Source: Escherichia coli
Lineage (GTDB): Bacteria > Pseudomonadota > Gammaproteobacteria > Enterobacterales > Enterobacteriaceae
Assembly (NCBI RefSeq): GCF_002854065.1
Contig: NZ_CP024147.1
DNA: 64,000 nucleotides
Strand: one strand, 5' to 3'
Below the pieces are notes generated by a model. It saw only the letters and a program-made list of their open reading frames with translations. It ran no database searches and was not told where the DNA came from. This document shows positions 24,899 through 39,416 of this stretch, piece after piece. Every line of letters begins with the position of its first letter. Within the stretch, counting starts at the first letter, position 1. The translations under genes and the position numbers were made by a program.

Positions 24899-26041
24899 TT
24901 AAATCTGCTTTTCATACAATCGGTAACGCTTGTACGGCTCTGCCCCAATGCGTTCCAGCATGTTATTCATGCCTGTATTGGTTTCGAGGATCCATGACAT
25001 CTCCAGCGCATCGATCTTCCGGCGGGCAAACGGATCGCGTAAGGCTTCAATCAATAACAGCGCAATCACCGGGCCGATGCGGCTGAACTGATACTCGTCC
25101 CGCACGCCCATCAGCGGCACTCGCGCAGTTCGCACACCGCTGACTTTCAAACGCCACAGCAATTTTGCCCAGCCGAAGGGAAAGAGCGATCCGTTCAGAT
25201 CGGCAATCGCCTCGTTGATGTTCGGCAAGCCGACAATAAACGCGCAGGGTGCAGAATCAATCTCAGCGATGTAGATCATATCGTCCGGCACCAGATATTT
25301 AAGTTGATCGCCCATGGTCGCGAATTCATGTTCGGTAAACGGCACAAATCCCCAGTTGTGCTGCCAGCCAGAGTTGAAAATCTCACGCAGGATCTGCATC
25401 TCTTCGGCAAACCGCTGGCGATTGATGCAGCGAATGGTCACCTTTTTGCGCACCTGATCCATCAGTTTTTTTAGCGCCGGAGAGAAAGTGAGATCGGTTC
25501 GCTGCATCCACCACGCCAGTAAATCAATGCCTTTGTGATAACCCAGTTGTTCAATATGCGCGGCATACCACGGTTTGCCGTGTGGCATCATCGCACAGGG
25601 TGGTGTGTCAAAACCTTCAATCAGTAATCCGCTTTCCTGATTGATATTCAGGCTGAAAGGCCCGCTGATCTTACTTGCACCTTGTGACTTCAACCACGCT
25701 TCCGCTGCGCCAAACAACGCGGCAAAAACCTGCGGATCATCAATGGCGTCAATCATTCCGAAATGACCGGTATCTTCACCGTAACGCTCACGGTGCAAGG
25801 TATCTATTTGCGCGGTAATACGCCCAACTATCTGCCCCGCTTTTTTTGCCACCCACGCCTGCCAGATGATATGGTCCGTCCCCGGATTTTTCGCAGACAA
25901 ATGCTCGCTGCGTTCAATGAATAAAGGGGGTATCCAGTTTGGATCATCGGGATAAAGTGATGACGGAAAAGCGATAAATGCCTTAAGGTCATTTTTATTA
26001 ATTACTTTTTCAATTTTGATCATCAGCAGATCGCATTCCAT
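24899..26041 (-). CDS. yghO: YghO-family protein, predicted acyltransferase (GNAT-like), about 375-380 aa
   Basis: Full-length ORF; start ATG at 26041 or 26023; recognised as YghO family; fold assignment is from memory of family annotation. Confidence 0.6.
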   Translation of the reverse strand: MECDLLMIKIEKVINKNDLKAFIAFPSSLYPDDPNWIPPLFIERSEHLSAKNPGTDHIIWQAWVAKKAGQIVGRITAQIDTLHRERYGEDTGHFGMIDAIDDPQVFAALFGAAEAWLKSQGASKISGPFSLNINQESGLLIEGFDTPPCAMMPHGKPWYAAHIEQLGYHKGIDLLAWWMQRTDLTFSPALKKLMDQVRKKVTIRCINRQRFAEEMQILREIFNSGWQHNWGFVPFTEHEFATMGDQLKYLVPDDMIYIAEIDSAPCAFIVGLPNINEAIADLNGSLFPFGWAKLLWRLKVSGVRTARVPLMGVRDEYQFSRIGPVIALLLIEALRDPFARRKIDALEMSWILETNTGMNNMLERIGAEPYKRYRLYEKQI

Positions 26042-26411: not shown

Positions 26412-28133
26412 ATGTCTAATAAAATCTTTACGCATTCCCTACCTATGCGCTATGCCGATTTTCCAACGCTGGTTGATGCTTTGGACTACGCCGCTCTGAG
26501 TAGCGCTGGAATGAATTTTTATGACAGACGTTGCCAACTTGAAGATCAACTGGAATATCAGACGTTAAAAGCGCGTGCCGAAGCTGGTGCGAAGCGGTTG
26601 TTATCGCTAAACCTGAAAAAAGGCGATCGCGTGGCGCTGATTGCCGAAACCAGTAGCGGGTTCGTAGAGGCTTTTTTTTCCTGCCAGTATGCCGGCTTAG
26701 TCGCCGTCCCGTTGGCGATTCCAATGGGCGTCGGTCAGCGGGATTCCTGGAGCGCCAAACTGCAGGGTTTACTGGCAAGTTGCCAGCCCGCTGCCATTAT
26801 CACTGGTGATGAGTGGTTGCCGCTGGTCAATGCCGCCACGCATAACAACCCCGAATTGCATGTATTAAGCCACGCCTGGTTTAAGGCATTACCGGAAGCT
26901 GATGTTGCGCTCCAGCGCCCAGTTCCGGACGATATCGCCTACCTCCAGTACACCTCCGGCAGCACCCGTTTTCCCCGTGGCGTCATTATCACCCATCGCG
27001 AAGTGATGGCTAATCTACGTGCTATAAGCCACGATGGCATTAAATTACGCCCTGGCGACCGCTGCGTCTCCTGGCTGCCTTTCTACCATGATATGGGACT
27101 GGTCGGCTTTCTCCTGACCCCGTTCGCCACGCAGCTTTCAGTAGATTATTTGCGCACTCAGGATTTTGCCATGCGTCCTCTGCAATGGCTTAAATTGATC
27201 AGTAAAAATCGCGGCACCGTTTCCGTTGCGCCGCCGTTTGGCTATGAATTGTGCCAGCGCCGCGTGAATGAAAAAGATCTCGCTGAACTGGATCTTTCCT
27301 GCTGGCGCGTCGCTGGTATTGGTGCAGAACCCATCTCCGCAGAACAACTCCATCAATTCGCTGAATGTTTCCGTCAGGTTAACTTTGACGATAAAACTTT
27401 CATGCCGTGCTACGGACTGGCAGAAAATGCGCTGGCTGTCAGTTTCTCTGATGAAGCCTCCGGGGTTGTGGTTAACGAAGTGGATCGCGACATCCTCGAA
27501 TATCAGGGTAAAGCCGTTGCGCCGGGTGCAGAGACACGCGCCGTATCGACTTTCGTCAACTGCGGTAAAGCGTTGCCGGAACATGGTATTGAAATCCGCA
27601 ATGAAGCAGGTATACCTGTCGCGGAACGTGTGGTAGGCCATATTTGCATCTCCGGCCCTAGCCTGATGAGCGGTTACTTTGGCGACCAGGTTTCACAAGA
27701 CGAGATTGCCGCGACGGGCTGGTTAGACACCGGGGACCTCGGTTATCTGCTGGACGGTTATCTGTATGTCACCGGACGCATTAAAGATCTGATTATTATT
27801 CGTGGCCGTAATATCTGGCCGCAGGATATTGAATATATTGCGGAACAGGAACCGGAAATTCATTCTGGCGATGCGATTGCTTTTGTTACCGCCCAGGAAA
27901 AAATCATTTTGCAGATCCAGTGTCGGATCAGCGATGAAGAACGTCGCGGGCAGCTTATCCACGCGCTGGCAGCACGGATCCAAAGCGAATTTGGCGTAAC
28001 AGCGGCTATCGATCTGTTGCCGCCCCACAGTATTCCCCGAACGTCCTCCGGTAAGCCTGCCCGTGCGGAAGCGAAAAAACGTTATCAGAAGGCTTATGCT
28101 GCCAGTCTTCATGTGCAGGAATCCCTGGCATGA
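26412..28133 (+). CDS. Fatty acyl-AMP ligase / acyl-CoA synthetase-like adenylating enzyme, about 573 aa
   Basis: AMP-binding core motif YTSGSTRFPRGVIITH and the overall architecture of ANL-superfamily enzymes; first gene of a 4-gene operon. Confidence 0.75.
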   Translation: MSNKIFTHSLPMRYADFPTLVDALDYAALSSAGMNFYDRRCQLEDQLEYQTLKARAEAGAKRLLSLNLKKGDRVALIAETSSGFVEAFFSCQYAGLVAVPLAIPMGVGQRDSWSAKLQGLLASCQPAAIITGDEWLPLVNAATHNNPELHVLSHAWFKALPEADVALQRPVPDDIAYLQYTSGSTRFPRGVIITHREVMANLRAISHDGIKLRPGDRCVSWLPFYHDMGLVGFLLTPFATQLSVDYLRTQDFAMRPLQWLKLISKNRGTVSVAPPFGYELCQRRVNEKDLAELDLSCWRVAGIGAEPISAEQLHQFAECFRQVNFDDKTFMPCYGLAENALAVSFSDEASGVVVNEVDRDILEYQGKAVAPGAETRAVSTFVNCGKALPEHGIEIRNEAGIPVAERVVGHICISGPSLMSGYFGDQVSQDEIAATGWLDTGDLGYLLDGYLYVTGRIKDLIIIRGRNIWPQDIEYIAEQEPEIHSGDAIAFVTAQEKIILQIQCRISDEERRGQLIHALAARIQSEFGVTAAIDLLPPHSIPRTSSGKPARAEAKKRYQKAYAASLHVQESLA

Positions 28134-29044
28134 ATCAAACTGTCGCGGTGACGGGCGCTACCGGGTTTATCGGTAAATATATTATCGATAACCTGCTCAC
28201 CCGCGGCTTTCACGTTCGCGCATTGACGCGTACTGCCCGCGCTCACGTCAATGATAATCTTACTTGGGTGCGCGGTTCGCTGGAAGATACACATTCGCTT
28301 AGCGAACTGGTTGCCGGAGCCAGCGCGGTGGTCCATTGCGCCGGGCAAGTGCGCGGACACAAAGAAGAGATTTTTACCCACTGTAACGTTGACGGCAGCC
28401 TGCGCCTGATGCAAGCAGCAAAAGAGAGCGGCTTTTGCCAACGTTTTCTGTTTATCTCTTCGCTGGCGGCGCGCCATCCCGAGCTCTCCTGGTACGCAAA
28501 TTCCAAACACGTCGCCGAACAACGGCTGACGGCAATGGCTGACGAAATTACGCTGGGCGTTTTTCGCCCGACAGCCGTGTATGGTCCCGGCGATAAAGAG
28601 TTAAAACCGCTGTTTGACTGGATGCTGCGCGGCCTGCTGCCACGACTTGGTGCACCAGATACACAGTTCTCTTTCCTGCATGTCACCGATTTTGCGCAAG
28701 CAGTGGGTCAGTGGTTAAGCGCCGAAACTGTACAGACGCAAACCTATGAATTATGCGATGGCGTCGCTGGCGGCTATGACTGGCAACGCGTACGACAGCT
28801 TGCCGCCGAAGCCCGTTGTGGTTCCGTGCGGATGGTTGGCCTTCCTCTGCCGGTACTCACCTGCCTTGCGGATATCAGTACTGCGTTGAGTCGCCTGGCA
28901 GGTAAAGAACCTATGCTGACCCGCTCGAAAATTCGTGAATTAACCCACGCCGACTGGTCGGCAAGTAATAACCGTATTTCTGAAGATATTAATTGTTTTC
29001 CCGGGATTAGCCTGGAACACGCATTACGCAACGGGCTATTTTGA
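28130..29044 (+). CDS. NAD(P)-dependent epimerase/dehydratase-family (SDR) oxidoreductase, 304 aa
   Basis: N-terminal Rossmann motif VTGATGFIGKYI; start overlaps the upstream stop (ATGA). Confidence 0.7.
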   Translation: MNQTVAVTGATGFIGKYIIDNLLTRGFHVRALTRTARAHVNDNLTWVRGSLEDTHSLSELVAGASAVVHCAGQVRGHKEEIFTHCNVDGSLRLMQAAKESGFCQRFLFISSLAARHPELSWYANSKHVAEQRLTAMADEITLGVFRPTAVYGPGDKELKPLFDWMLRGLLPRLGAPDTQFSFLHVTDFAQAVGQWLSAETVQTQTYELCDGVAGGYDWQRVRQLAAEARCGSVRMVGLPLPVLTCLADISTALSRLAGKEPMLTRSKIRELTHADWSASNNRISEDINCFPGISLEHALRNGLF

Positions 29045-29075: not shown

Positions 29076-29324
29076 ATGGTAAATCGTGAAATAGTAATGG
29101 ATTACATCCTTTCCTGTTTACAGGATTTGGTCGAAAACGGTGTGGAAATTAAGCCCGACAGCGATCTCGTCAACGATCTTGGCCTGGAGTCGATCAAAGT
29201 GATGGATCTCTTAATGATGCTGGAAGACAGATTCGATATTTCCATTCCTATTAATATTCTGCTGGATGTCAAAACCCCTGCGCAATTAATGGAAACTCTA
29301 CTTCCATGGCTGGAGAATAAATAA
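29076..29324 (+). CDS. Acyl carrier protein-like small protein, about 75-82 aa
   Basis: Phosphopantetheine-attachment-like motif DLGLESIKVMDL; acidic helical protein; start ambiguous (29076 or 29097). Confidence 0.6.
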   Translation: MVNREIVMDYILSCLQDLVENGVEIKPDSDLVNDLGLESIKVMDLLMMLEDRFDISIPINILLDVKTPAQLMETLLPWLENK

Positions 29325-30496
29325 TGGGGCTATACGATAAATATGCGCGCCTTGCTGGCGAGCGACTGCAATTTAGTGACAACGGGTTAACACCGTTTGG
29401 CACCTGTATTGATGAAGTGTATTCCGCCACCGAAGGCCGGATCGGCAATAAAAAAGTGATTCTGGCCGGGACCAATAATTACCTCGGTTTAACCTTTAAT
29501 CATGATGCCATCGCCGAAGGTCAGGCAGCGTTAGCGGCCCAAGGCACCGGCACCACCGGTTCTCGTATGGCAAACGGCAGTTATGCGCCGCACCTGGCGT
29601 TAGAGAAAGAGATTGCCGAGTTTTTCAATCGCCCTACCGCTATCGTTTTTTCAACCGGTTATACCGCTAATTTAGGCGTCATCAGCGCACTTGCCGACCA
29701 TAACGCCGTGGTGTTACTGGATGCCGACAGCCACGCCAGTATTTATGACGCCTGTTCTCTCGGTGGCGCGGAAATTATTCGTTTCCGCCATAACGATGCT
29801 AAAGATCTGGAACGGCGCATGGTTCGCCTCGGTGAACGGGCGAAAGAGGCGATTATCATCGTTGAGGGTATCTACAGCATGCTCGGTGACGTTGCGCCGC
29901 TGGCGGAAATTGTTGATATCAAACGTCGTCTCGGTGGTTATTTGATTGTCGATGAAGCGCATTCGTTTGGCGTGTTAGGCGCAACGGGGCGCGGACTGGC
30001 TGAAGCTGTCGGCGTTGAAGATGATGTGGATATTATCGTTGGCACCTTCAGTAAAAGTCTGGCCTCGATTGGCGGTTTTGCTGTCGGTTCGGAAGCGATG
30101 GAAGTACTGCGCTACGGCAGCCGCCCGTATATTTTTACCGCCTCTCCTTCTCCGTCCTGCATTGCGACCGTGCGCTCGTCGTTAAAAACTATTGCCACAC
30201 AACCAGAGCTGCGGCAAAAGCTGATGGATAACGCCAACCATCTGTATGACGGTCTGCAAAAACTGGGTTATGAGTTAAGTTCACATATTAGCCCGGTAGT
30301 GCCGGTAATAATCGGTTCGAAAGAGGAAGGTTTACGCATCTGGCGCGAGCTTATTTCGCTGGGCGTTTATGTGAATCTTATCCTGCCACCTGCCGCGCCT
30401 GCAGGCATCACGCTGCTGCGCTGTAGCGTAAACGCTGCCCACAGTCGTGAGCAAATCGATGCCATCATTCAGGCATTTGCTACTCTGAAGCAGTAA
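29324..30496 (+). CDS. PLP-dependent alpha-oxoamine synthase family enzyme (BioF / serine palmitoyltransferase / CqsA-like), 390 aa
   Basis: Class-II aminotransferase fold with lysine motif GTFSKSLASIGGF; start overlaps the ACP stop. Confidence 0.75.
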   Translation: MGLYDKYARLAGERLQFSDNGLTPFGTCIDEVYSATEGRIGNKKVILAGTNNYLGLTFNHDAIAEGQAALAAQGTGTTGSRMANGSYAPHLALEKEIAEFFNRPTAIVFSTGYTANLGVISALADHNAVVLLDADSHASIYDACSLGGAEIIRFRHNDAKDLERRMVRLGERAKEAIIIVEGIYSMLGDVAPLAEIVDIKRRLGGYLIVDEAHSFGVLGATGRGLAEAVGVEDDVDIIVGTFSKSLASIGGFAVGSEAMEVLRYGSRPYIFTASPSPSCIATVRSSLKTIATQPELRQKLMDNANHLYDGLQKLGYELSSHISPVVPVIIGSKEEGLRIWRELISLGVYVNLILPPAAPAGITLLRCSVNAAHSREQIDAIIQAFATLKQ

Positions 30497-30530: not shown

Positions 30531-31610
30531 TTAATGTTGTCTGTCATACCAATACACCAGGCTCAACGCCACCAGCACAAACGCTATCGGTAAACCGAGC
30601 GCGGTAACAGGTGCGCTCAACGCAAATAGCAATCCCAGATTGACCATGATTTGATAGCTGATCCAGGTGAGTAAGCCAACGATGACACCTACAGCGAGAC
30701 GGCTACCCATCCCTGGCGAGCGCGGGGCACTAAAGGTAAACGGCACAGCCAGCAAAATCATCGCCAGGGTCAGGATGGGTTGCCCCAGTTTTTCCCACAG
30801 TGCAAGGCGGTATTCGCTGCTGGGTTGCCCGGTTTCCTGCAAATAATGGATGTAATGATTAAGCTGACGGACAGAAAAAGTATTCCCCGGCATCGATAGC
30901 TCTTCAAGATCCATACTGGTGAAGGCCGATTGCCAGGCAAGATTATCTGATGTTTCCAGCGTTTCTTTGCCATTCAGCCATTTTTTATGATTCACACCAT
31001 GCAGGATCCACGTTTTGTCGTCTTCAATGGTGGCACTGCGTGCATAAATGTAGGATTCGAGCGAAAGATCATCACGATAATGAAAAATCTCCACGCGCAC
31101 AGGCTGGCCCTGCTCGTTCAGCGATTTTACCGTCACAAATTCATTACCGCGCCTGGCCCACAGCATATTGCCGGTAATGTCATCGTCCTCACCCAACGCA
31201 GTGGCAGTCGATTTGATTTGCAGCGCCTGTTGCTGCAATGGCGACGCTACCCACTCATCTATCGCGCCTAACGAAACAGTCCACAATATCCCGGCAACCA
31301 GCGCCACCAGTGCAATACGGAAGATAGAAAACCCCGTGCTGCGAATGGCGGTAAGCTCACTGTTTTTCGATAACTGCCCCAGGCCAACAATCCCTCCCAA
31401 TAAGGCGATAAACGGCGAAAGTTCGACCAGTGTGCGCGGTAAGGTCATTAGCACCACCAGCACCGCCTGAGTCCAGCGATAACCGCCCGGGCTGACATCA
31501 TCCAGTTCGTTAATCAGGTTGAAGGTGGTAAAAAGCGGCAGCAATAGCCCTGCGGCGGCGGCAAAACCGAGAAAGAGATGACGGATTAAATAGCGACTGA
31601 AAACATTCAT
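30531..31610 (-). CDS. LptF/LptG-family (YjgP/YjgQ) permease paralog, about 359 aa
   Basis: N-terminus MNVFSRYLIRHLFLGFAAAAGLL resembles LptF/LptG; polytopic with a large central soluble loop; start set at the Met with overlap to the upstream gene stop. Confidence 0.55.
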   Translation of the reverse strand: MNVFSRYLIRHLFLGFAAAAGLLLPLFTTFNLINELDDVSPGGYRWTQAVLVVLMTLPRTLVELSPFIALLGGIVGLGQLSKNSELTAIRSTGFSIFRIALVALVAGILWTVSLGAIDEWVASPLQQQALQIKSTATALGEDDDITGNMLWARRGNEFVTVKSLNEQGQPVRVEIFHYRDDLSLESYIYARSATIEDDKTWILHGVNHKKWLNGKETLETSDNLAWQSAFTSMDLEELSMPGNTFSVRQLNHYIHYLQETGQPSSEYRLALWEKLGQPILTLAMILLAVPFTFSAPRSPGMGSRLAVGVIVGLLTWISYQIMVNLGLLFALSAPVTALGLPIAFVLVALSLVYWYDRQH

Positions 31611-32677
31611 CGGGAAAATTTCTGCAGCAAAGAGAAGTCGCGTGCGACCAGCATCAGCAGGCCCATTAGCATGAGTCCGGGCACTAACCACAAACCAGGA
31701 ATGAGAGGAATCGCGCCGTTAGCCACCAGCGTACGGCAGACGTCGCCGCCATAAAAAATGGCAATAAACAGCAACGTCAGTGGCAATAACGTTGAAAATC
31801 GCCCCTGCCGCGGTTTTACCCGACTTAATGAAATGGCCAGCAGCGCCATCAACAATGCTGTCAGGCCACGGCTTTGTCGCCATTGCAGTTCGGCATGATC
31901 GGCTGGAAAGACGGAGCGCGCCAGCTCCGTGACCGATTTCGCTTTGCGTTTGACGTTAGGGCTTTGATCCAGCGGATTCAGATGTAATTGCAGATTACGG
32001 TAGATCTGTTCGTTGTCGTCACGCCCCTGATGATCGAGAAGATAGGCAGTGCCGTTGTGCAACATAACAGTCGGTTTCTCGGGTGATGGGTCAACCACAT
32101 CAACCGAACGGGCGCGGAAAATGCGGGTTCGATTGGCAGTAGAAGTATAAATCAGCGCGTCAGTCAGGCGATTATTATCCTGATCAACCGTCTGCGAAAG
32201 GATCATTCGTCCGTTATCGTTAGTGTTAAATTTCTTTGCCCGCAACTGGCGAACATCCAGCTCCGACTGCGACTGCTGCTCCAGTTGATAAATCTGCGCA
32301 TAAGCCCACGGACGACCATACATCGACAGAAGGGTGACAAAAATACTTAGCGGTATCGCCAGATAAAGAACGGCTTTGTACAAGCGTCCCGGACTGCCCC
32401 CCGCCGCAGAGATAGCGGTAATTTCCGAGTCGGTATACATCTGCCCTAGCGTCACGCCAACTGACACATACAGTCCAACAGGTAACAACATCTCCAGTGC
32501 AATCAGCACTTTGTAGAAAACGATATCCAGCACAACATCAAGTGCTAATGTCCCATTTGCCGCTTCGGTCAGATAACGCTGTGCGGAGTAGCTGGCGAAA
32601 ATAAAGATCAGAAAACCGACGATAATCAGCACCAGACGGCGCGTACCACGCATGATGTAGTGTTCAACCAGCTTCAT
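31607..32677 (-). CDS. LptF/LptG-family (YjgP/YjgQ) permease paralog, 356 aa
   Basis: Same architecture as the adjacent gene; translationally coupled pair. Confidence 0.55.
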   Translation of the reverse strand: MKLVEHYIMRGTRRLVLIIVGFLIFIFASYSAQRYLTEAANGTLALDVVLDIVFYKVLIALEMLLPVGLYVSVGVTLGQMYTDSEITAISAAGGSPGRLYKAVLYLAIPLSIFVTLLSMYGRPWAYAQIYQLEQQSQSELDVRQLRAKKFNTNDNGRMILSQTVDQDNNRLTDALIYTSTANRTRIFRARSVDVVDPSPEKPTVMLHNGTAYLLDHQGRDDNEQIYRNLQLHLNPLDQSPNVKRKAKSVTELARSVFPADHAELQWRQSRGLTALLMALLAISLSRVKPRQGRFSTLLPLTLLFIAIFYGGDVCRTLVANGAIPLIPGLWLVPGLMLMGLLMLVARDFSLLQKFSR

Positions 32678-32707: not shown

Positions 32708-33271
32708 TTATTCATTGATCAGTTTCTGCGCCAGCGCAATGACATGATCTACCTCTTCCGGCGTCAGGCTGCCGTCCTTTGCCCACTGAATTTGCCCAGC
32801 TTTATTCAGCACCAGAATGGTTGAACTCTGCTCCGGCAAGCGCCAGGCAACGCGTCCCTGTCCATTGCCGTCAATAACGAATTGCGCCCACGGATAGCGG
32901 CGTTTATTTTTTTCGATTTTGCCAACGACAAAATAGCCAGTACCAAAGATGGCATCATCAGTGTTCACAATGGTGGTGGGCTGAAAACGATCCTGTGGAA
33001 AGTTTGCCGCTTCAACCGCTTTAATTAACAGTGAGTTCTTCTTCTTCGCTGACTTACGCCCGGCGATATACTGGATAATGCGGACTTTTCCCGCCAATTG
33101 TGTGCTGTTCCACTTTTGGTAGTGAATTTCGTCGTCGCTATTCAGAAGCAGCTCGCCGCCTTCCTGAATATAAACAGGGGTAACCGTTTTGCCAGTGACG
33201 AAATTGTGTGCCTGCACACCCGGGGCTAATAGCATGATAATCAGCGCAATAATCAAACGAGATGACATCAT
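32708..33271 (-). CDS. YtfJ-family secreted/periplasmic protein paralog, 187 aa
   Basis: Signal peptide MMSSRLIIALIIMLLAPGVQA; conserved blocks TTIVNTDDAI and WAKDGSLTPEEV resemble YtfJ (from memory). Confidence 0.5.
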   Translation of the reverse strand: MMSSRLIIALIIMLLAPGVQAHNFVTGKTVTPVYIQEGGELLLNSDDEIHYQKWNSTQLAGKVRIIQYIAGRKSAKKKNSLLIKAVEAANFPQDRFQPTTIVNTDDAIFGTGYFVVGKIEKNKRRYPWAQFVIDGNGQGRVAWRLPEQSSTILVLNKAGQIQWAKDGSLTPEEVDHVIALAQKLINE

Positions 33272-33279
33272 TGCTCCGG

Positions 33280-34104
33280 TTATAGCGGAAAACGCGAAAT
33301 CAGCAGCTCTAAGCGCTGACGAATATCGCTATCCAGCGCCACCGGTGCATCATACGACTGGCGGTTTTCCATATCATCCGCCACCATGTCGTCGTGTTTA
33401 TCCCCCATCAGGCCATTAATGGCGGCGAGGAAACGGGAAATCTGTAACGCCTCTTTATTTTCAGGATCAAGCGATCTTAAGGTGTCGTAATAAGAAACCT
33501 GCTGGCTGATGATTTTTCGCACATCATGAAATTCCCTGCCGGTTAGTCGCGGTTTGGCAATTATCTCTTTCAGGGCATGCATTTGCTTTTGCCGATAGGC
33601 AATAAAACCGCTTACGCTTTCTAACTGGCTATGGCGTAATGAATAGTTCACCAACGACCAGACCGGAGAGCTTAAATAAATTCGTAACAGGTTGCCGTAA
33701 TACGACACAATATTTTTCTTACCGTTACGAAATCCGTCCTGAAAACGTCCCAGAAAAACGGTCGTTTTGCCGAATAAAAATCCGGCCTGATGCTTCTTTA
33801 AATACAGCCGTTGCGCAAAACGCAGGTGCTTGTAGCGCGCTCGCATGTATTTAAACTGTTTACGCTCGTCTGTCGTCAGCTCATCGCCTTTGGCTTGTTT
33901 GCGAATTAAACGAAGTAATTCCTGGCGATCAACGCCATTGAGCCAGAATTGCAGGCATAACGCGTAATTATCATGGATGATTTCGGTGGTACAACTTAGT
34001 GCGATAGTCGGCGGCAAACTGACCTGGGCATCAACAACATCATCTTCCTCAATCGCAACAAATAGATGCTCGCTCGCCTCAAGCGGGAAATATTTTCTCA
34101 TCAT
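33280..34104 (-). CDS. Hypothetical protein, 274 aa, no recognised domain
   Basis: ORF in track, tightly packed between flanking genes of the same operon; coding-like composition. Confidence 0.5.
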   Translation of the reverse strand: MMRKYFPLEASEHLFVAIEEDDVVDAQVSLPPTIALSCTTEIIHDNYALCLQFWLNGVDRQELLRLIRKQAKGDELTTDERKQFKYMRARYKHLRFAQRLYLKKHQAGFLFGKTTVFLGRFQDGFRNGKKNIVSYYGNLLRIYLSSPVWSLVNYSLRHSQLESVSGFIAYRQKQMHALKEIIAKPRLTGREFHDVRKIISQQVSYYDTLRSLDPENKEALQISRFLAAINGLMGDKHDDMVADDMENRQSYDAPVALDSDIRQRLELLISRFPL

Positions 34105-35453
34105 CAGGATTTCTCTCCGGCTGCGTTATAAAGCAAGGAATGGCGCTGAAAAAATGCCTTTAAGGTCGGAATTAGCGAAAGCACCACATCCAGGCATTGA
34201 CCGCCGAAATAAGCAAACGCTGCTCCCAGCACGCCAAACAGATGACAGAACATGAACAGCAATACGATGTAGCCGATTGAGGCGATGGTTTGCGCCACGA
34301 GAAAAGCGCGCTGTTTTCCCGCCATCAATAGCAATGACTCCTGAGGGAAGCCCAGCATCGAGATCACAATTGCGCCCAGCATCACCTGAATCAGGTCATA
34401 CGCTTCGAGATACTTAACGCCAAACACCAGCGAAATGAGCGGCTTGCCGACGATCAACACCGCGAGCGCCACCAGAATACCGATTCCGCCCGCCAGTAAA
34501 CCGGACTTCACACCTAACAACCACGGTCTGGTGGTGCGCGGATCTAAACGCATCACCTCTGGGTAAAAACTTTTACCCAGCAAACCCGCTGGCGTTCCGG
34601 CGGCGTCGAAGAATGTCATGGCGATTTTAAATAACCCGGCGGCAGCGGGTCCTAACACGATCCCCACCAACACTGTGCTGCACGAGTTACGTGCCGACCA
34701 GATGGAGTGGGCAATGTTGGTTGACCAGACAAAACTCCACGCGCCTTTAATGTGTCGGGCAGACTCAAACAGATTCAATTTGAAGGCGTTATGGATATTT
34801 CTGCGGCGTAATTCGCGCGCGGCAAACCACCAGTACATGGTGCCGCCAACCAGATTCGACACGTACCAGGCAATAACAAAACCCGCAAAACCAAAGTCAA
34901 AATACCAGGCTGCGACGCTCCCCGCTGCGCGCAGAAAAGGTTTCGTCGCCTGCTGTACAGCAATCAAATCAAAGCGATCTACCGCACGCAGAATGCCGGT
35001 CGGCGTGGAGGAAGCCATTGAAGGAATGAGCGTGCAATACAGCGCCGCCAGCCAAAAGCTTTGGTCATCCAGACCTAATGAATGGGAAAGGAATGGCAGT
35101 AAGGCAATGCCGCCGACAATCGCCACCGCGCCGCTGACGATATCCAGCGAGAAGGAAAATGAGACGACATTGCGAAATTGCTGCGGATTATTGTTGGTCA
35201 AGGCTGGCGTTCCGTACTGAACCACCAGCTGCCATGTCTGAAACTTAATAAAATCGCTGATCGACTTGGCGTACGATTGTACAATCACCAGTACGCCAAA
35301 CATGGCGGGCGTCATCCCTTTACCGGCACACGAGAGCGCCAACAGACCCAGCAAGGCGCTCACGACATTACTGGAGCCTAACCAGGCGCTATTGCGAATA
35401 ATGGTGCGAAACGCGCCATCTGCAAACCAATGTTTGATGTTAAAACCCGCCAA
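34104..35453 (-). CDS. yghQ: Polytopic membrane protein, putative MOP-superfamily (Wzx/MATE-like) flippase; start codon uncertain (TTG in track)
   Basis: About 449-aa ORF with multiple hydrophobic segments; gene symbol by synteny with yghR/S/T. Confidence 0.5.
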   Translation of the reverse strand: MAGFNIKHWFADGAFRTIIRNSAWLGSSNVVSALLGLLALSCAGKGMTPAMFGVLVIVQSYAKSISDFIKFQTWQLVVQYGTPALTNNNPQQFRNVVSFSFSLDIVSGAVAIVGGIALLPFLSHSLGLDDQSFWLAALYCTLIPSMASSTPTGILRAVDRFDLIAVQQATKPFLRAAGSVAAWYFDFGFAGFVIAWYVSNLVGGTMYWWFAARELRRRNIHNAFKLNLFESARHIKGAWSFVWSTNIAHSIWSARNSCSTVLVGIVLGPAAAGLFKIAMTFFDAAGTPAGLLGKSFYPEVMRLDPRTTRPWLLGVKSGLLAGGIGILVALAVLIVGKPLISLVFGVKYLEAYDLIQVMLGAIVISMLGFPQESLLLMAGKQRAFLVAQTIASIGYIVLLFMFCHLFGVLGAAFAYFGGQCLDVVLSLIPTLKAFFQRHSLLYNAAGEKS

Positions 35454-35498: not shown

Positions 35499-36257
35499 TT
35501 AAGTTAAACTTCGGCGGTCAGAAACGATGGCAACCAGAGAAACCGCCTTCTGTGCCTGTTCCAGCACTTCGCTGTAGGGCGCTCTGGAATCAATCTCAAG
35601 AATTTTTGTGCCGTTATAGCCAATCGTCGACATAACACCGATTTTGTCCTGCAGCTCGGCATAGTCATGGTCAGGCTTGCGGGAGATGGCAGTCTCAATA
35701 TCAATGCCCAGGCGAATAATTAATTCCGGGCGATATTGCGCCATTTGTTGGTATAAACGCCGTTCGCGCTGCGCCAGAAACATGCTTATTTTCCCGGTCG
35801 CACGTTCGACGCCAATCCCCGGTCCATCATAATAAAAGCCCGAAATTTCAGCCTGCGGGAAGCGATCGCTGACCACCAGAACGCCACTTTGCGCCAGTCG
35901 CTGAACCTTGCGTAGATTCGCCATTCTTCGCAGCGAGAAGCAGTACATAATCACCGCCGCCCATAGCGCCGGAGATTTGGTTTTCATGCTTTGGGTTTTC
36001 GAGGATTTGGCCGCCAGTCGCCGTTCCAGCCAGACGCCAACCAACGGCAATCGTTTTATTTTGTCGCCGTCTTCGCCCGAGAGCAGCCCCAAATAGCGGC
36101 GCTCGGTTTGCCAGTGTTGTTGCAGCGATTTCACCAGGTCGGTGGTCAGTGTGGATTTACCGGTGCCATCACACCCGACCACCGCAATCAGCCCCGGAAT
36201 GTAGTTGGGCTGCGGCGCGGTTGTACTAATAACAGTTTGTGTTTGTAGTGCATCCAT
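35499..36257 (-). CDS. yghR: P-loop NTPase (kinase-like), paralog 1 of 3, 252 aa
   Basis: Walker A IAVVGCDGTGKSTLT; shares SDRFPQ...DGP and RKPDH blocks with the next two genes. Confidence 0.65.
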   Translation of the reverse strand: MDALQTQTVISTTAPQPNYIPGLIAVVGCDGTGKSTLTTDLVKSLQQHWQTERRYLGLLSGEDGDKIKRLPLVGVWLERRLAAKSSKTQSMKTKSPALWAAVIMYCFSLRRMANLRKVQRLAQSGVLVVSDRFPQAEISGFYYDGPGIGVERATGKISMFLAQRERRLYQQMAQYRPELIIRLGIDIETAISRKPDHDYAELQDKIGVMSTIGYNGTKILEIDSRAPYSEVLEQAQKAVSLVAIVSDRRSLT

Positions 36258-36288
36258 TCGTTAAATCATCCCCTATCCATTTTGGTGA

Positions 36289-37002
36289 TCAGGAAAGCGC
36301 GGCGTGAATTGCGCGTAGTGACGCTTGCATAATTTCATCGGCTGGTTGCCGACCATCCAGTTCAAGGATCTTTGCGCCATTGAATGTCAGTTGCGGCGTA
36401 ACGGCGATTTTTTCCTGTAACGCTGCCAGTTGGTGGTCAGGTTTACGCGCAAACGCGGTTTGTTCATCAATGCCAAGACGAATCAACAATACGGGCAAAT
36501 AAGACGCCATCCATTGGTACAGCTTCAGCTCGCGCTGCCTTAACATTTTTATCCAACCGTTACCGCCCGTGGTTTTTGCCAATTGCGGGCCATCAAAGCG
36601 AAAACCCGGCACTTCAACCTGCGGGTAGCGGTCGGTGATGAGCAGATAGCCTTGCTGGCTTTTACACAACATTTTGCGAAACTTGTACGCCCGCCAGCAG
36701 GAAAGCAGATAGATAACCAGCGCAGTAATATTGCCAGGCGGTGTTGAGGGTTTTTCGTGCACATGTGCCGCTTTACTTCGCAGATAACGCCCACAAGGTG
36801 CGCCAATAACAGGGAGCTGTGAAATCCATTCGCCAATTCGCCCGGACGATTGCCCGAGATAAATGCGTTCTGTTGGCATTCTTGCTGCCAGTTCATTTAC
36901 CAGGCTTGCCGTGAGGGTCGATTTACCTGAACCATCACATCCTACAATGGCAATAACACGCACTGGCGTGGAATTAATTATTGACATATTACGTTGATTC
37001 AC
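36289..37002 (-). CDS. yghS: P-loop NTPase (kinase-like), paralog 2 of 3, 237 aa
   Basis: Walker A IAIVGCDGSGKSTLT; TDRYPQ...DGP; RKPDH. Confidence 0.65.
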   Translation of the reverse strand: MNQRNMSIINSTPVRVIAIVGCDGSGKSTLTASLVNELAARMPTERIYLGQSSGRIGEWISQLPVIGAPCGRYLRSKAAHVHEKPSTPPGNITALVIYLLSCWRAYKFRKMLCKSQQGYLLITDRYPQVEVPGFRFDGPQLAKTTGGNGWIKMLRQRELKLYQWMASYLPVLLIRLGIDEQTAFARKPDHQLAALQEKIAVTPQLTFNGAKILELDGRQPADEIMQASLRAIHAALS

Positions 37003-37175
37003 GAAAAACCCGGCAGTAAATAATGTATTGAATATTACGTGATCCGTGCTCAGAATATCCGTTCAACCTTATTGTGACAATGGTTAATTGTGACATTGAC
37101 CTGAATTACGCTTTCATAAAAACATATTAACCAAATAAATATTTTGGATGGATATTTAAATTTAAGGATATATTC

Positions 37176-37868
37176 ATGCAGTCAATAACACCTCCATTAA
37201 TTGCCGTTATTGGTAGCGATGGTTCAGGCAAGTCAACGGTGTGTGAACATCTCATTACCGTTGTCGAAAAATATGGTGCTGCCGAAAGAGTTCATTTAGG
37301 AAAACAAGCCGGAAATGTCGGTCGTGCAGTGACAAAATTACCGTTGATGGGAAAATCCTTACATAAAACAATTGAACGAAATCAGGTGAAAACAGCAAAA
37401 AAATTGCCAGGACCAGTTCCGGCGCTGGTAATTACAGCGTTTGTCGCCCGTCGCTTACTGCGCTTTCTTCATATGCTTGCCTGTCGTCGTCGCGGGTTAA
37501 TTGTTCTAACCGACCGTTATCCTCAGGACCAAATTCCGGGCGCTTACGATGGTACGGTGTTCCCACCTAACGTTGAAGGTAGTCGTTTTGTCTCATGGCT
37601 GGCAAGCCAGGAACGTAAAGCGTTTCACTGGATGGCGAGCCATAAGCCTGATCTGGTCATCAAACTCAATGTTGACCTTGAAGTTGCCTGCGCGCGTAAA
37701 CCCGACCATAAACGGGAATCGCTGGCGAGGAAGATTGCCATAACGCCACAGTTAACCTTTGGTGGTGCACAACTGGTTGATATCGATGCTAATCAGCCAC
37801 TGGAAAAGGTGCTGGTTGATGCAGAAAAAGCGATTACGGATTTTATGACCGCGCGTGGTTATCACTAG
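37176..37868 (+). CDS. yghT: P-loop NTPase (kinase-like), paralog 3 of 3, 230 aa
   Basis: Walker [26 protein letters not shown]; divergent from yghS. Confidence 0.65.
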
Positions 37869-37916
37869 CCAAAAATGGAAATGCCCGATCGCCAGGACCG
37901 GGCATTTTCAGGAAGG

Positions 37917-39416
37917 TTAAATCAACTGCAATGCTATCCAGTACAACCCACCAGAAAGAAAAATCGCCGCCGGTAAAGTAAATACCCACGCCATCAGGAT
38001 GCTGGTTACCGTTTTACGCTGTAACCCTCCGCCGTCCACCACCATCGTTCCTGCTACGGCAGATGAGAGTACGTGTGTTGTGGAGACGGGCATCCCAATA
38101 TAACTGGCAAGGCCGATAGACACTGCCGCCGTCATTTGTGCCGCCATGCCTTGCGCATACGTCATGCCGCGCTTACCAATCTTCTCACCGATGGTCATCG
38201 CAACACGACGCCAGCCAATCATGGTGCCAATGCCGAGCGCCAGTGCTACTGCCGTGATGATCCACACCGGAGCGTACTCAATGGTGCTTAACATATCGCT
38301 GCGCAGTTTTTTCAGCAGGTTCTGGTCTTCTTTACTGACGCCTGGCAGTTTCGCCAGCTTCGCGGAAGTATCAGAGATACACAGCATAATGCGGCGCAGC
38401 TGGCTGCGCTGACTCACGCTTAACGGCTCGTAACTTTCCATATTGCCTGGCAGCATCGTTTTAACGCGCGCAATCGCATCAAAGGTATTTGCCGGATGAC
38501 AGTGAAACTCCGTTACTTGCGTGCCATCAGTCGATGCCGCAGGCAATGGAGGTTCCATCGCAATCAACTTCTGCGGCAGTTCAGGATGCTGTTGCAGGTA
38601 GTGTTCGAAGTTGGTAACGGCATCGCGGGTACGGGTAATTTCATAGCCGGACGCGTTCATATTGACGACGAAGCCAGCAGGGGCAATCCCCACCAGTACC
38701 AGCATCACCAGGCCGATCCCTTTCTGCCCGTCGTTAGCGCCGTGCGAAAACGCCACGCCCGCAGCGGAAACAATCAGCGCAATACGCGTCCAGAATGGCG
38801 GCTTACGTTTGCCTTTTTTCTTTTTGCGATCTTCCGGAATGCGGTGAATACGGTCACGCTTTTTCGTTCCGCTCCAGTAGCGTCGCAGCAGGAATATCAG
38901 GCCTCCCGCAATGACCAGGCCGACGATTGGGGAAACAATCAGCGAGGAGAAAATTTTGGTCACTTCACGCAGGTTTAACGCATCCATCACCGATGAGCCG
39001 GTTAACAGCGCGTTGGTTAAACCGATGCCGATAATCGCGCCAATCAAGGTATGCGAACTGGAGGCCGGTAAACCAAAGAACCACGTTCCCAGGTTCCAGA
39101 TAATCGCCGCCAGCAGCATGGAAAAGACCATCGCCAGGCCGTGGGTTGACCCCATATTCAGCAACAAATCGGTTGGCAACATATGGACAATGGCATAGGC
39201 AACGCTAAGTCCGCCCAATAACACGCCAAAAAAGTTAAAAAATGCCGCCATCACCACAGCAAGTTGTGGCTGCATGGCACGAGTATAAATAACGGTTGCC
39301 ACCGCATTCGCCGTGTCATGAAAACCATTGATTGCTTCGTAGAACAACACAAATGCCAGAGCAAGTAATAACAAAAGCCCTGTGTATATATCAAGGCCAA
39401 CAAATAAATTTAGCAT
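37917..39416 (-). CDS. pitB: Low-affinity inorganic phosphate transporter (PiT family), 499 aa
   Basis: Full-length ORF recognised as PitB. Confidence 0.85.

Follow-up and report, generated by a model that had tools for sequence, protein, structure and literature searches.

The genes yghR, yghS, and yghT, which lie together in the 64,000-nucleotide window of Escherichia coli contig NZ_CP024147.1 analyzed here, encode three paralogous P-loop proteins with a thymidylate kinase (TMPK)-like fold and conserved motifs, which represent three old clades and share their neighborhood with genes for ceramide synthesis, a flippase, Lpt-type export permeases, and lipid-phosphate-modifying enzymes. We place moderate confidence in the reading that YghR, YghS, and YghT are ancient, catalytically intact TMPK-fold phosphotransferases forming the head-group module of a bacterial ceramide pathway; the trio would most likely phosphorylate an as yet undescribed outer-membrane sphingolipid rather than nucleotides. 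The new aspect is the apparent recruitment of a TMPK-superfamily kinase family to a lipid pathway. We found no published function for the three genes, which have been listed as uncharacterized ATP-binding proteins whose knock-outs had no strong effect on virulence in silkworms (PMC9278758). A literature link of yghR/S/T, or of "thymidylate kinase-like" genes, to sphingolipid loci was not found either; the UTI89 figure of 10.64898/2026.04.12.717747, which lay outside this search, may already draw them.

Paralogy, fold, and age of the kinase trio

The three open reading frames (ORFs) have the coordinates and strands assigned to them in a first-pass annotation of this DNA, as judged by the ORF list and the annotation, and the region shares 100% DNA identity with the RefSeq coding sequences (CDSs) of E. 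coli strain 100416. Their paralogy, claimed at the same time, is borne out by BLASTP: every pair is significant and collinear over ~217 to 220 residues, with 44% identity for YghR/YghS (E = 3e-63), 33% for YghR/YghT (E = 2e-45), and 36% for YghS/YghT (E = 3e-53), a similarity that far exceeds chance. Among the shared blocks listed in that annotation, the Walker A strings, DR(F/Y)PQ, and RKPDH are present, whereas DGP is replaced by DGT in YghT. The catalytic motifs are intact in all three proteins, with the correction that the Walker B residue of this fold is the aspartate of the DR motif, D124, conserved at 95 to 100% in the family alignment. Across 130 family members, GxDGxGKST, DRxPQ, RKPDH, and K198 are ~98 to 100% conserved in each clade, and the arginine of the DRX motif (R125, identified in HMMER alignments) is kept at 100% in all three clades; judged by these residues, there is no degenerate pseudo-enzyme among the three. 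Clade-specific residues occur in the 48-62 loop and at positions 134 and 136. This loop and position 134 are likely on the acceptor side of the kinase, and each paralogue seems to be tuned to something different. The earlier suggestion of three phosphotransfer steps or three specificities fits this pattern.

The predicted structures of YghR, YghS, and YghT adopt the three-layer TMPK fold with P-loop, DRX motif, and LID; their structural matches identify a small-molecule kinase of the TMPK type and not an ABC ATPase. The profile of the 130 members matches solved thymidylate kinases with an E value of 1.7e-6, over the P-loop and the DR strand as well as the LID/C-terminal portion. A near-invariant Arg104 aligns in HMMER alignments with the arginine of the "FSANR" helix of human TMPK; in TMPKs, the FSANR and DRX arginines hold the phosphate of the acceptor. 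In place of the acceptor-side region of deoxythymidine monophosphate (dTMP) kinases, the family has an insertion of its own of 60 to 70 residues (residues ~48 to 116), with invariant Gly/Pro positions and lower model confidence. Pfam assigns no significant family to the three proteins, giving generic P-loop matches and sub-threshold matches to Thymidylate_kin (PF02223; independent E values of 0.047 to 0.45), and the NCBIfam dTMP kinase model TIGR00041, whose cut-off is 83.25 bits, scores 32.0, 22.9, and 25.2 bits. Identity to the dTMP kinase superfamily is only 17 to 22%, below every curated threshold for this enzyme; moreover, unlike dTMP kinases, YghR, YghS, and YghT are three co-inherited paralogues in a lipid and envelope context rather than in nucleotide metabolism. 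At the family level, the RefSeq name "dTMP kinase" is therefore without sequence support. All three clades are very basic (median isoelectric point, 9.7 to 10.0), and some relatives have transmembrane-like anchors at the N terminus.

Scanning one genome per species yielded 248 relatives; the best 80 loci were examined, and the 57 loci with 8 kb or more of sequence on each side form a well-flanked subset. In a neighbor-joining tree rooted on distant fused relatives, R (76 members), S (69), and T (64) are each monophyletic, and R and S are sisters. The triplication, which had been described as tandem, is by this measure ancient and not a recent local event, with R, S, and T being old clades common to several proteobacterial classes. 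The trio occurs in Gamma-, Beta-, Alpha-, and Deltaproteobacteria, namely in many enterobacterial genera, Dyella, Rhodanobacter, Luteibacter, and Carnimonas; in Methylotenera, Sulfuritalea, Gallionellaceae, and Nitrotoga; in Sphingobium, Sphingopyxis, and Novosphingobium; and in myxobacterial and deltaproteobacterial metagenome-assembled genomes (MAGs). All three paralogues are found in 52 of the 57 well-flanked loci, and nearly everywhere yghT is divergent from yghS-yghR. AlphaFold-DB holds relatives from Sphingobium, Novosphingobium, Zymomonas, Acetobacteraceae, Azotobacter, and Pseudomonas, all under automatic names only. Within E. coli, the trio is kept in 4,604 of 5,426 complete genomes. 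Some E. coli records (P0021, P0028, P0034, and P0062) hold a second YghS-type protein, ~71 to 75% identical and flagged PF02223, which may be a divergent island allele or a second copy.

The ceramide island and its companion genes

In most E. coli, including the strain analyzed here, the trio stands at the end of a 13-kb island made up of yghO, aasR, cerR, acpR, spt, lptG2, lptF2, a YtfJ-family gene, a gene for a 274-residue hypothetical protein (hyp274), yghQ, and the trio itself (Table 1). The lipid/export context seen at first pass agrees with the annotation; what had not been identified is that the island is specifically a ceramide/sphingolipid locus. The left half of the island corresponds to the known ceramide pathway of Proteobacteria. 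yghO (ECD_02850) is listed as "aca," the counterpart of Caulobacter CC_1154, and overexpression of the BL21 orthologues ECD_02851/53/54 (range ECD_02851-02854) gave 3-oxo-sphinganine (PMC9386255). Empty vectors gave no sphingolipid-like products in that paper, and the locus seems to be silent under laboratory conditions. The aasR-spt segment is intact in 4,067 of the 5,426 complete E. coli genomes. Among the 57 well-flanked loci, 46 have spt no more than 10 kb away from the trio. According to a bioRxiv report (10.64898/2026.04.12.717747), which also draws the UTI89 locus, Caulobacter LptF2/G2 is implicated in sphingolipid export. The flippase gene yghQ accompanies the trio in 62 of the 80 loci, and the YtfJ-family gene is found in 39, mostly of Enterobacterales; the N terminus of its product is hydrophobic and, judged by eye from the sequence, resembles a signal peptide. 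In the E. coli island, there is no Walker A protein other than YghR, YghS, and YghT, no lipid kinase of the GGDG type among the island proteins, and no spare ORF; no glycosyltransferase was found in Enterobacterales islands. Defense models in PADLOC gave P-loop-level matches to the trio only (E values of at least 2e-4), and a defense system was rejected as unlikely, as these matches are P-loop noise.

Unbiased clustering of all other ORFs in the loci identified further companions: an OlsC/LpxO-type lipid acyl hydroxylase (24 loci), PAP2 lipid-phosphate phosphatases of an LpxE-like (14 loci) and a SepP/PgpB/LpxF-like (7 loci) kind, an LmtA-like lipid A 1-phosphate O-methyltransferase (9 loci; E = 2e-33), and RND/NodT efflux parts (up to 9 loci). 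The companion enzymes are decorators of phosphorylated membrane lipids, a toolkit for a phosphorylated lipid. A YegS/diacylglycerol (DAG)-kinase-type lipid kinase, of the family of the Caulobacter ceramide kinase CpgB, is present in only 3 of 76 non-Escherichia loci (L019, positions 8152-9117; L054, 5381-6421; L055, 2673-3725). The coexistence of the two kinase types in these three loci argues that the trio is not merely a replacement for CpgB; in L019, the lipid kinase gene is directly upstream of yghS, which fits a trio acting after a first phosphorylation. In a Myxococcales MAG (L070, 2669-4948, plus strand), LptF and LptG are fused into one 760-residue protein, adjoining two T-type kinases, one S, one R, and a PAP2 phosphatase.

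The hyp274 gene, located between the YtfJ-like gene and yghQ, accompanies the trio in 55 of the 80 loci. Its product is confidently modeled as an all-alpha protein, and the three best structural matches of the model are CHAD domains. CHAD domains are specific polyphosphate-binding modules composed of two four-helix bundles with conserved basic patches (PMC6537752); the predicted structure of hyp274 likewise shows two four-helix bundles, and basic and His residues are conserved in it. His, Arg, and Lys make up most of its invariant positions, which include KHLRFAQR and FHDVRK, one in each half. On the model, hyp274 is CHAD-like at the level of the fold, whereas membership at the sequence level fails; it has no NCBIfam match. 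Two other identities were rejected: a sulfotransferase, considered for the stretch FGKTTVFL, by the all-alpha, CHAD-like model, and a free-standing version of the ~260-residue N-domain of fused kinase relatives (described below), by BLASTP, which found nothing, and by hhalign, at a probability of 0.7%. Some Luteibacter loci (L046 and L051) carry the hyp274 gene as two tandem copies.

In more distant relatives, the kinase forms one protein with a MOP flippase (Polysacc_synt_3, E = 1e-74) or with a GT4 glycosyltransferase, and other relatives are encoded directly after the flippase in Wzx/Wzy polysaccharide clusters. In some 40 or more relatives of 480 to 530 residues (P0161, P0169, P0172, P0179; L082, 7223-8731), the kinase domain follows a domain of ~260 residues with a G-x-T-D-x-D-x-L-V motif, and the gene comes right after a MOP flippase gene in Wzx/Wzy clusters. 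This N-domain has no NCBIfam match and is possibly nucleotidyltransferase-like; in P0228 and P0270, flippase, ~260-residue domain, and kinase are all fused.

Table 1. Island genes and flanking features, with positions in the window
Feature	Coordinates	Strand	Description	Evidence or occurrence
yghO	24899-26041	-	Putative N-acyltransferase, dihydroceramide synthesis ("aca"; cerS/bCerS in other papers)	ORF, PMC9386255
aasR	26445-28133	+	Ceramide precursor synthesis	Annotation
cerR	28130-29044	+	Ceramide precursor synthesis	Annotation
acpR	29076-29324	+	Ceramide precursor synthesis	Annotation
spt	29324-30496	+	Ceramide precursor synthesis	Annotation
lptG2	30531-31610	-	Lipopolysaccharide (LPS)-export permease paralogue	Annotation; lptF2/lptG2 in 35/80 loci
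lptF2	31607-32677	-	LPS-export permease paralogue	Annotation; lptF2/lptG2 in 35/80 loci
YtfJ-family gene	32708-33271	-		TIGR01626, 212 bits vs 151 cut-off
hyp274 gene	33280-34104	-	274 residues; conserved "hypothetical" protein, predicted CHAD-like fold	
yghQ	34104-35453	-	MOP-superfamily (Wzx-like) flippase, directly adjoins yghR in the same direction	Weak NCBIfam MOP flippase match
yghR	35499-36257	-	252 residues; TMPK-fold P-loop kinase paralogue, R clade	ORF, annotated CDS, paralogy, monophyly, motifs
yghS	36289-37002	-	237 residues, GTG start; TMPK-fold P-loop kinase paralogue, S clade, sister to R	
yghS/yghT divergent intergenic region	37003-37175	.	173 bp, 30.1% GC	
yghT	37176-37868	+	230 residues; TMPK-fold P-loop kinase paralogue, T clade, earliest branching, divergent transcription	
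Hairpin	37879-37907		GC-rich, 12-bp stem, then T-run; between convergent yghT and pitB ends	
pitB	37917-39416	-	Phosphate transporter, directly adjoins yghT in Escherichia	

The spacer between yghS and yghT is AT-rich, as had been noticed, when compared with the 51.2% GC of the window. The bidirectional promoters proposed for it do not emerge from a sigma-70 scan, which gave 3 sites against 3.3 expected from shuffled sequence; the sole site in the spacer is a weak -35/-10-like pair on the minus strand (37080 to 37052), facing yghS. Published data include a 3.1-fold increase of yghS under SlyA overexpression (PMC5797941) and an FlhDC peak from systematic evolution of ligands by exponential enrichment (SELEX) inside the spacer (PMC9962212). 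At the other end of yghT, the hairpin is probably the terminator of pitB and may serve both genes. pitB also adjoins yghT in Hafnia, Citrobacter, and Pseudocitrobacter loci (L006, L008, L010, L013, and L078); this position is suggestive of a phosphate-rich product but could alternatively reflect shared island structure. In at least one strain, LZHX12, for which only ~10% of the query matched, the annotated features include gspL (type II secretion) beside pitB. A conserved ORF of ~120 residues without family match lies near the island in 18 loci (L059, 1698-2081, and 17 others; all but one enterobacterial).

A proposed head-group phosphorylation model and its rivals

In the reading we prefer, ceramide would be made at the inner membrane by Spt, AcpR, AasR, CerR, and YghO, and the three kinases would phosphorylate the lipid head group at the cytoplasmic face in an ATP-dependent manner, each performing one step. 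The favored detail is a conversion of ceramide to ceramide-1-phosphate and then to a di- or oligophosphate by chemistry of the TMPK type, which transfers phosphate onto a phosphate acceptor. The CHAD-like protein would bind the phosphate-rich head group, YghQ would carry the lipid across the inner membrane, and LptF2/G2, probably with LptB, would deliver it to the outer membrane. Stepwise phosphate-on-phosphate transfer is favored because the arginines that hold the acceptor phosphate in TMPKs are retained, a fold that binds polyphosphate is inherited together with the kinases, and the trio has phosphatases and a phosphate methyltransferase as companions. The assignment to the pathway has a strong, purely genomic basis; from this we infer the chemistry, that is, the ceramide head group as substrate, one step per paralogue, and an oligophosphate as product. 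A bolder version, which we consider possible but rather doubtful, is that E. coli and many other Proteobacteria make a ceramide oligo- or polyphosphate not described before, in which a phosphate chain destined for the outer membrane is anchored to the lipid. Three dedicated TMPK-fold kinases would build it stepwise, a divergent CHAD-like protein that binds polyphosphate would act as chaperone, a MOP flippase would flip it, and LptF2/G2 would export it.

Several observations weigh against the ceramide head-group reading. The association of the trio with ceramide genes is one of gene neighborhood only, and for no paralogue do the data distinguish a hydroxyl from a phosphate acceptor; a literature search turned up no description of a sphingolipid native to E. 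coli, or of the head group of such a lipid. spt is missing within 10 kb in 11 of the 57 well-flanked loci, some of which are from sphingomonads, where sphingolipid genes are not all clustered (PMC9386255). About 540 K-12-type genomes (4,604 minus 4,067) keep the trio without spt, which is a minority state within E. coli. The R, S, and T labels came from the best tblastn match and preceded the tree, which makes the clade test less than fully independent. hyp274 has no match to Pfam CHAD (PF05235) even at an E value of ≤10 and no PDB sequence match at an E value of ≤1. Finally, glycosyltransferases occur in the distant loci, so that sugars could be the acceptors there.

The closest working analogy to the ygh locus is the archaeal family-3 polyphosphate kinase PPK3, a heteromer formed by two Sulfolobus "thymidylate kinases" (Saci_2019/Saci_2020) that are encoded with PPX, SixA, and a CHAD protein; the paper describing it mentions neither ygh genes nor lipids (PMC12995831). 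Both systems have basic TMPK-fold paralogues encoded side by side, formerly misannotated as thymidylate kinases, with a CHAD or CHAD-like protein in the cluster, and the structure of a cPPK3 homologue is among the two best structural matches of the Ygh kinases. However, the Ygh proteins are three and not two, all with the DRX arginine and without an obvious regulatory subunit, and their genes lie with those for ceramide synthesis, the MOP flippase, and paralogues of LptF/G and lack PPX and SixA; on the tested features, the trio resembles PPK3 but is not established as a member. The Caulobacter Cpg locus occupies the place in a sphingolipid locus that is proposed here for the trio: its head-group enzymes are encoded beside spt, acpR, aasR, cerR, cerS, and lptF2/G2, and its product is an anionic outer-membrane sphingolipid. 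Its ceramide kinase CpgB has an LCB5/DAG-kinase fold with a GGDG motif (PMC10331486), and the other enzymes of this ceramide-phosphoglycerate pathway resemble a CDP-alcohol transferase (CpgA), a CDP-DAG synthase (CpgC), and a cytidylyltransferase (CpgD) (PMC10331486, PMC11324152). No Caulobacter Cpg enzyme is a P-loop kinase, and that locus lacks YghRST and the CHAD-like gene, whereas the E. coli island lacks any Cpg gene, including a ceramide kinase of the CpgB type; homology of YghR/S/T to CpgA/B/C was ruled out, as the Cpg enzymes belong to other families. LpxK, the lipid A 4'-kinase, is an example of how a P-loop kinase can phosphorylate a membrane lipid on the cytoplasmic side, ahead of its flipping and its export through Lpt. 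It is a single-copy enzyme of another P-loop kinase family that acts on the glucosamine hydroxyl of the lipid A precursor, and it is not among the structural matches listed for the Ygh kinases.

The likeness to PPK3 could be taken further, in that a TMPK-fold hetero-oligomer would make or consume inorganic polyphosphate held by the CHAD-like protein, with polyphosphate being either the phosphate donor for the lipid or attached to it. We consider this unlikely: the regulatory subunit of PPK3 has lost the DRX arginine that is kept at 100% in all three Ygh clades, neither PPX nor SixA is found in the E. coli island or among the frequent companion families, and the family profile matches the 2plr/5h70 sequence, the one PDB sequence compared, with an E value of only 0.031 and over the P-loop only, more weakly than it matches ordinary TMPKs. 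The tight linkage is also with ceramide genes and not with polyphosphate genes, and E. coli already possesses PPK1. Similarly improbable, though possible especially outside Enterobacterales, is that the kinases act on another lipid-linked substrate of the MOP flippase, either the sugar of a glycosyl-ceramide or polysaccharide unit, in the manner of the LPS core kinases, or a lipid carrier. The relatives fused to a GT4 glycosyltransferase or a MOP flippase, those directly following the flippase in Wzx/Wzy clusters, and the Methylotenera locus, where GT2 and GT4 genes lie between the kinases, point in this direction; against them stand the glycosyltransferase-free islands of Enterobacterales, the far stronger linkage of the trio to spt than to any glycosyltransferase, and the position of the fused relatives outside the R/S/T clades, as the outgroup of the tree, so that their substrate may differ.

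Two further readings have much less to recommend them. The proteins might be non-kinase ATPases that regulate or energize transport, as substitutes for LptB on LptF2/G2 or as partners of the flippase, or they might be decaying remnants; the bioRxiv report finds no LptB paralogue in sphingolipid loci, and the genes persist in K-12 without ceramide genes. This is very unlikely, because the DRX and LID motifs, which are specific to kinases, do not vary, the proteins have the fold of a small-molecule kinase (by which ABC-type ATPases for LptF2/G2 were ruled out), and the strong conservation across classes speaks against decay; Caulobacter LptF2/G2, according to that report (10.64898/2026.04.12.717747), binds the housekeeping LptB. 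The least credible reading takes the trio as extra dTMP (nucleotide) kinases, as RefSeq names yghS and yghT, and as the TMPK-like fold with its P-loop and DRX motifs might suggest. TIGR00041 scores far under the cut-off, the Thymidylate_kin match is not significant, the insertion carries Gly/Pro motifs of its own, and the gene context is that of lipids and the envelope throughout; the essential tmk gene of E. coli is located elsewhere.

Bearing on envelope lipids of Enterobacterales

The ceramide-synthesis island is intact in about three quarters of complete E. coli genomes, and we found no description of its lipid. For the best-studied bacterium, yghR, yghS, yghT, the CHAD-like gene, and yghQ are now specific candidates to fill the head-group and flipping steps that are missing. 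The head-group reading, if true, would correct a widespread "dTMP kinase" annotation and would extend the recruitment of TMPK-fold proteins to phosphate-chain chemistry that is represented by PPK3. Should the product be a ceramide oligo- or polyphosphate, bacteria would reach anionic sphingolipids by a second, independent route, and the PPK3 idea would have a bacterial counterpart that is directed at lipids. The assignment of the trio, the CHAD-like gene, and yghQ to the island would also have a bearing on the charge of the outer membrane and, by analogy with the work on Caulobacter, possibly on polymyxin sensitivity and on the host interaction of commensal and pathogenic Enterobacterales.

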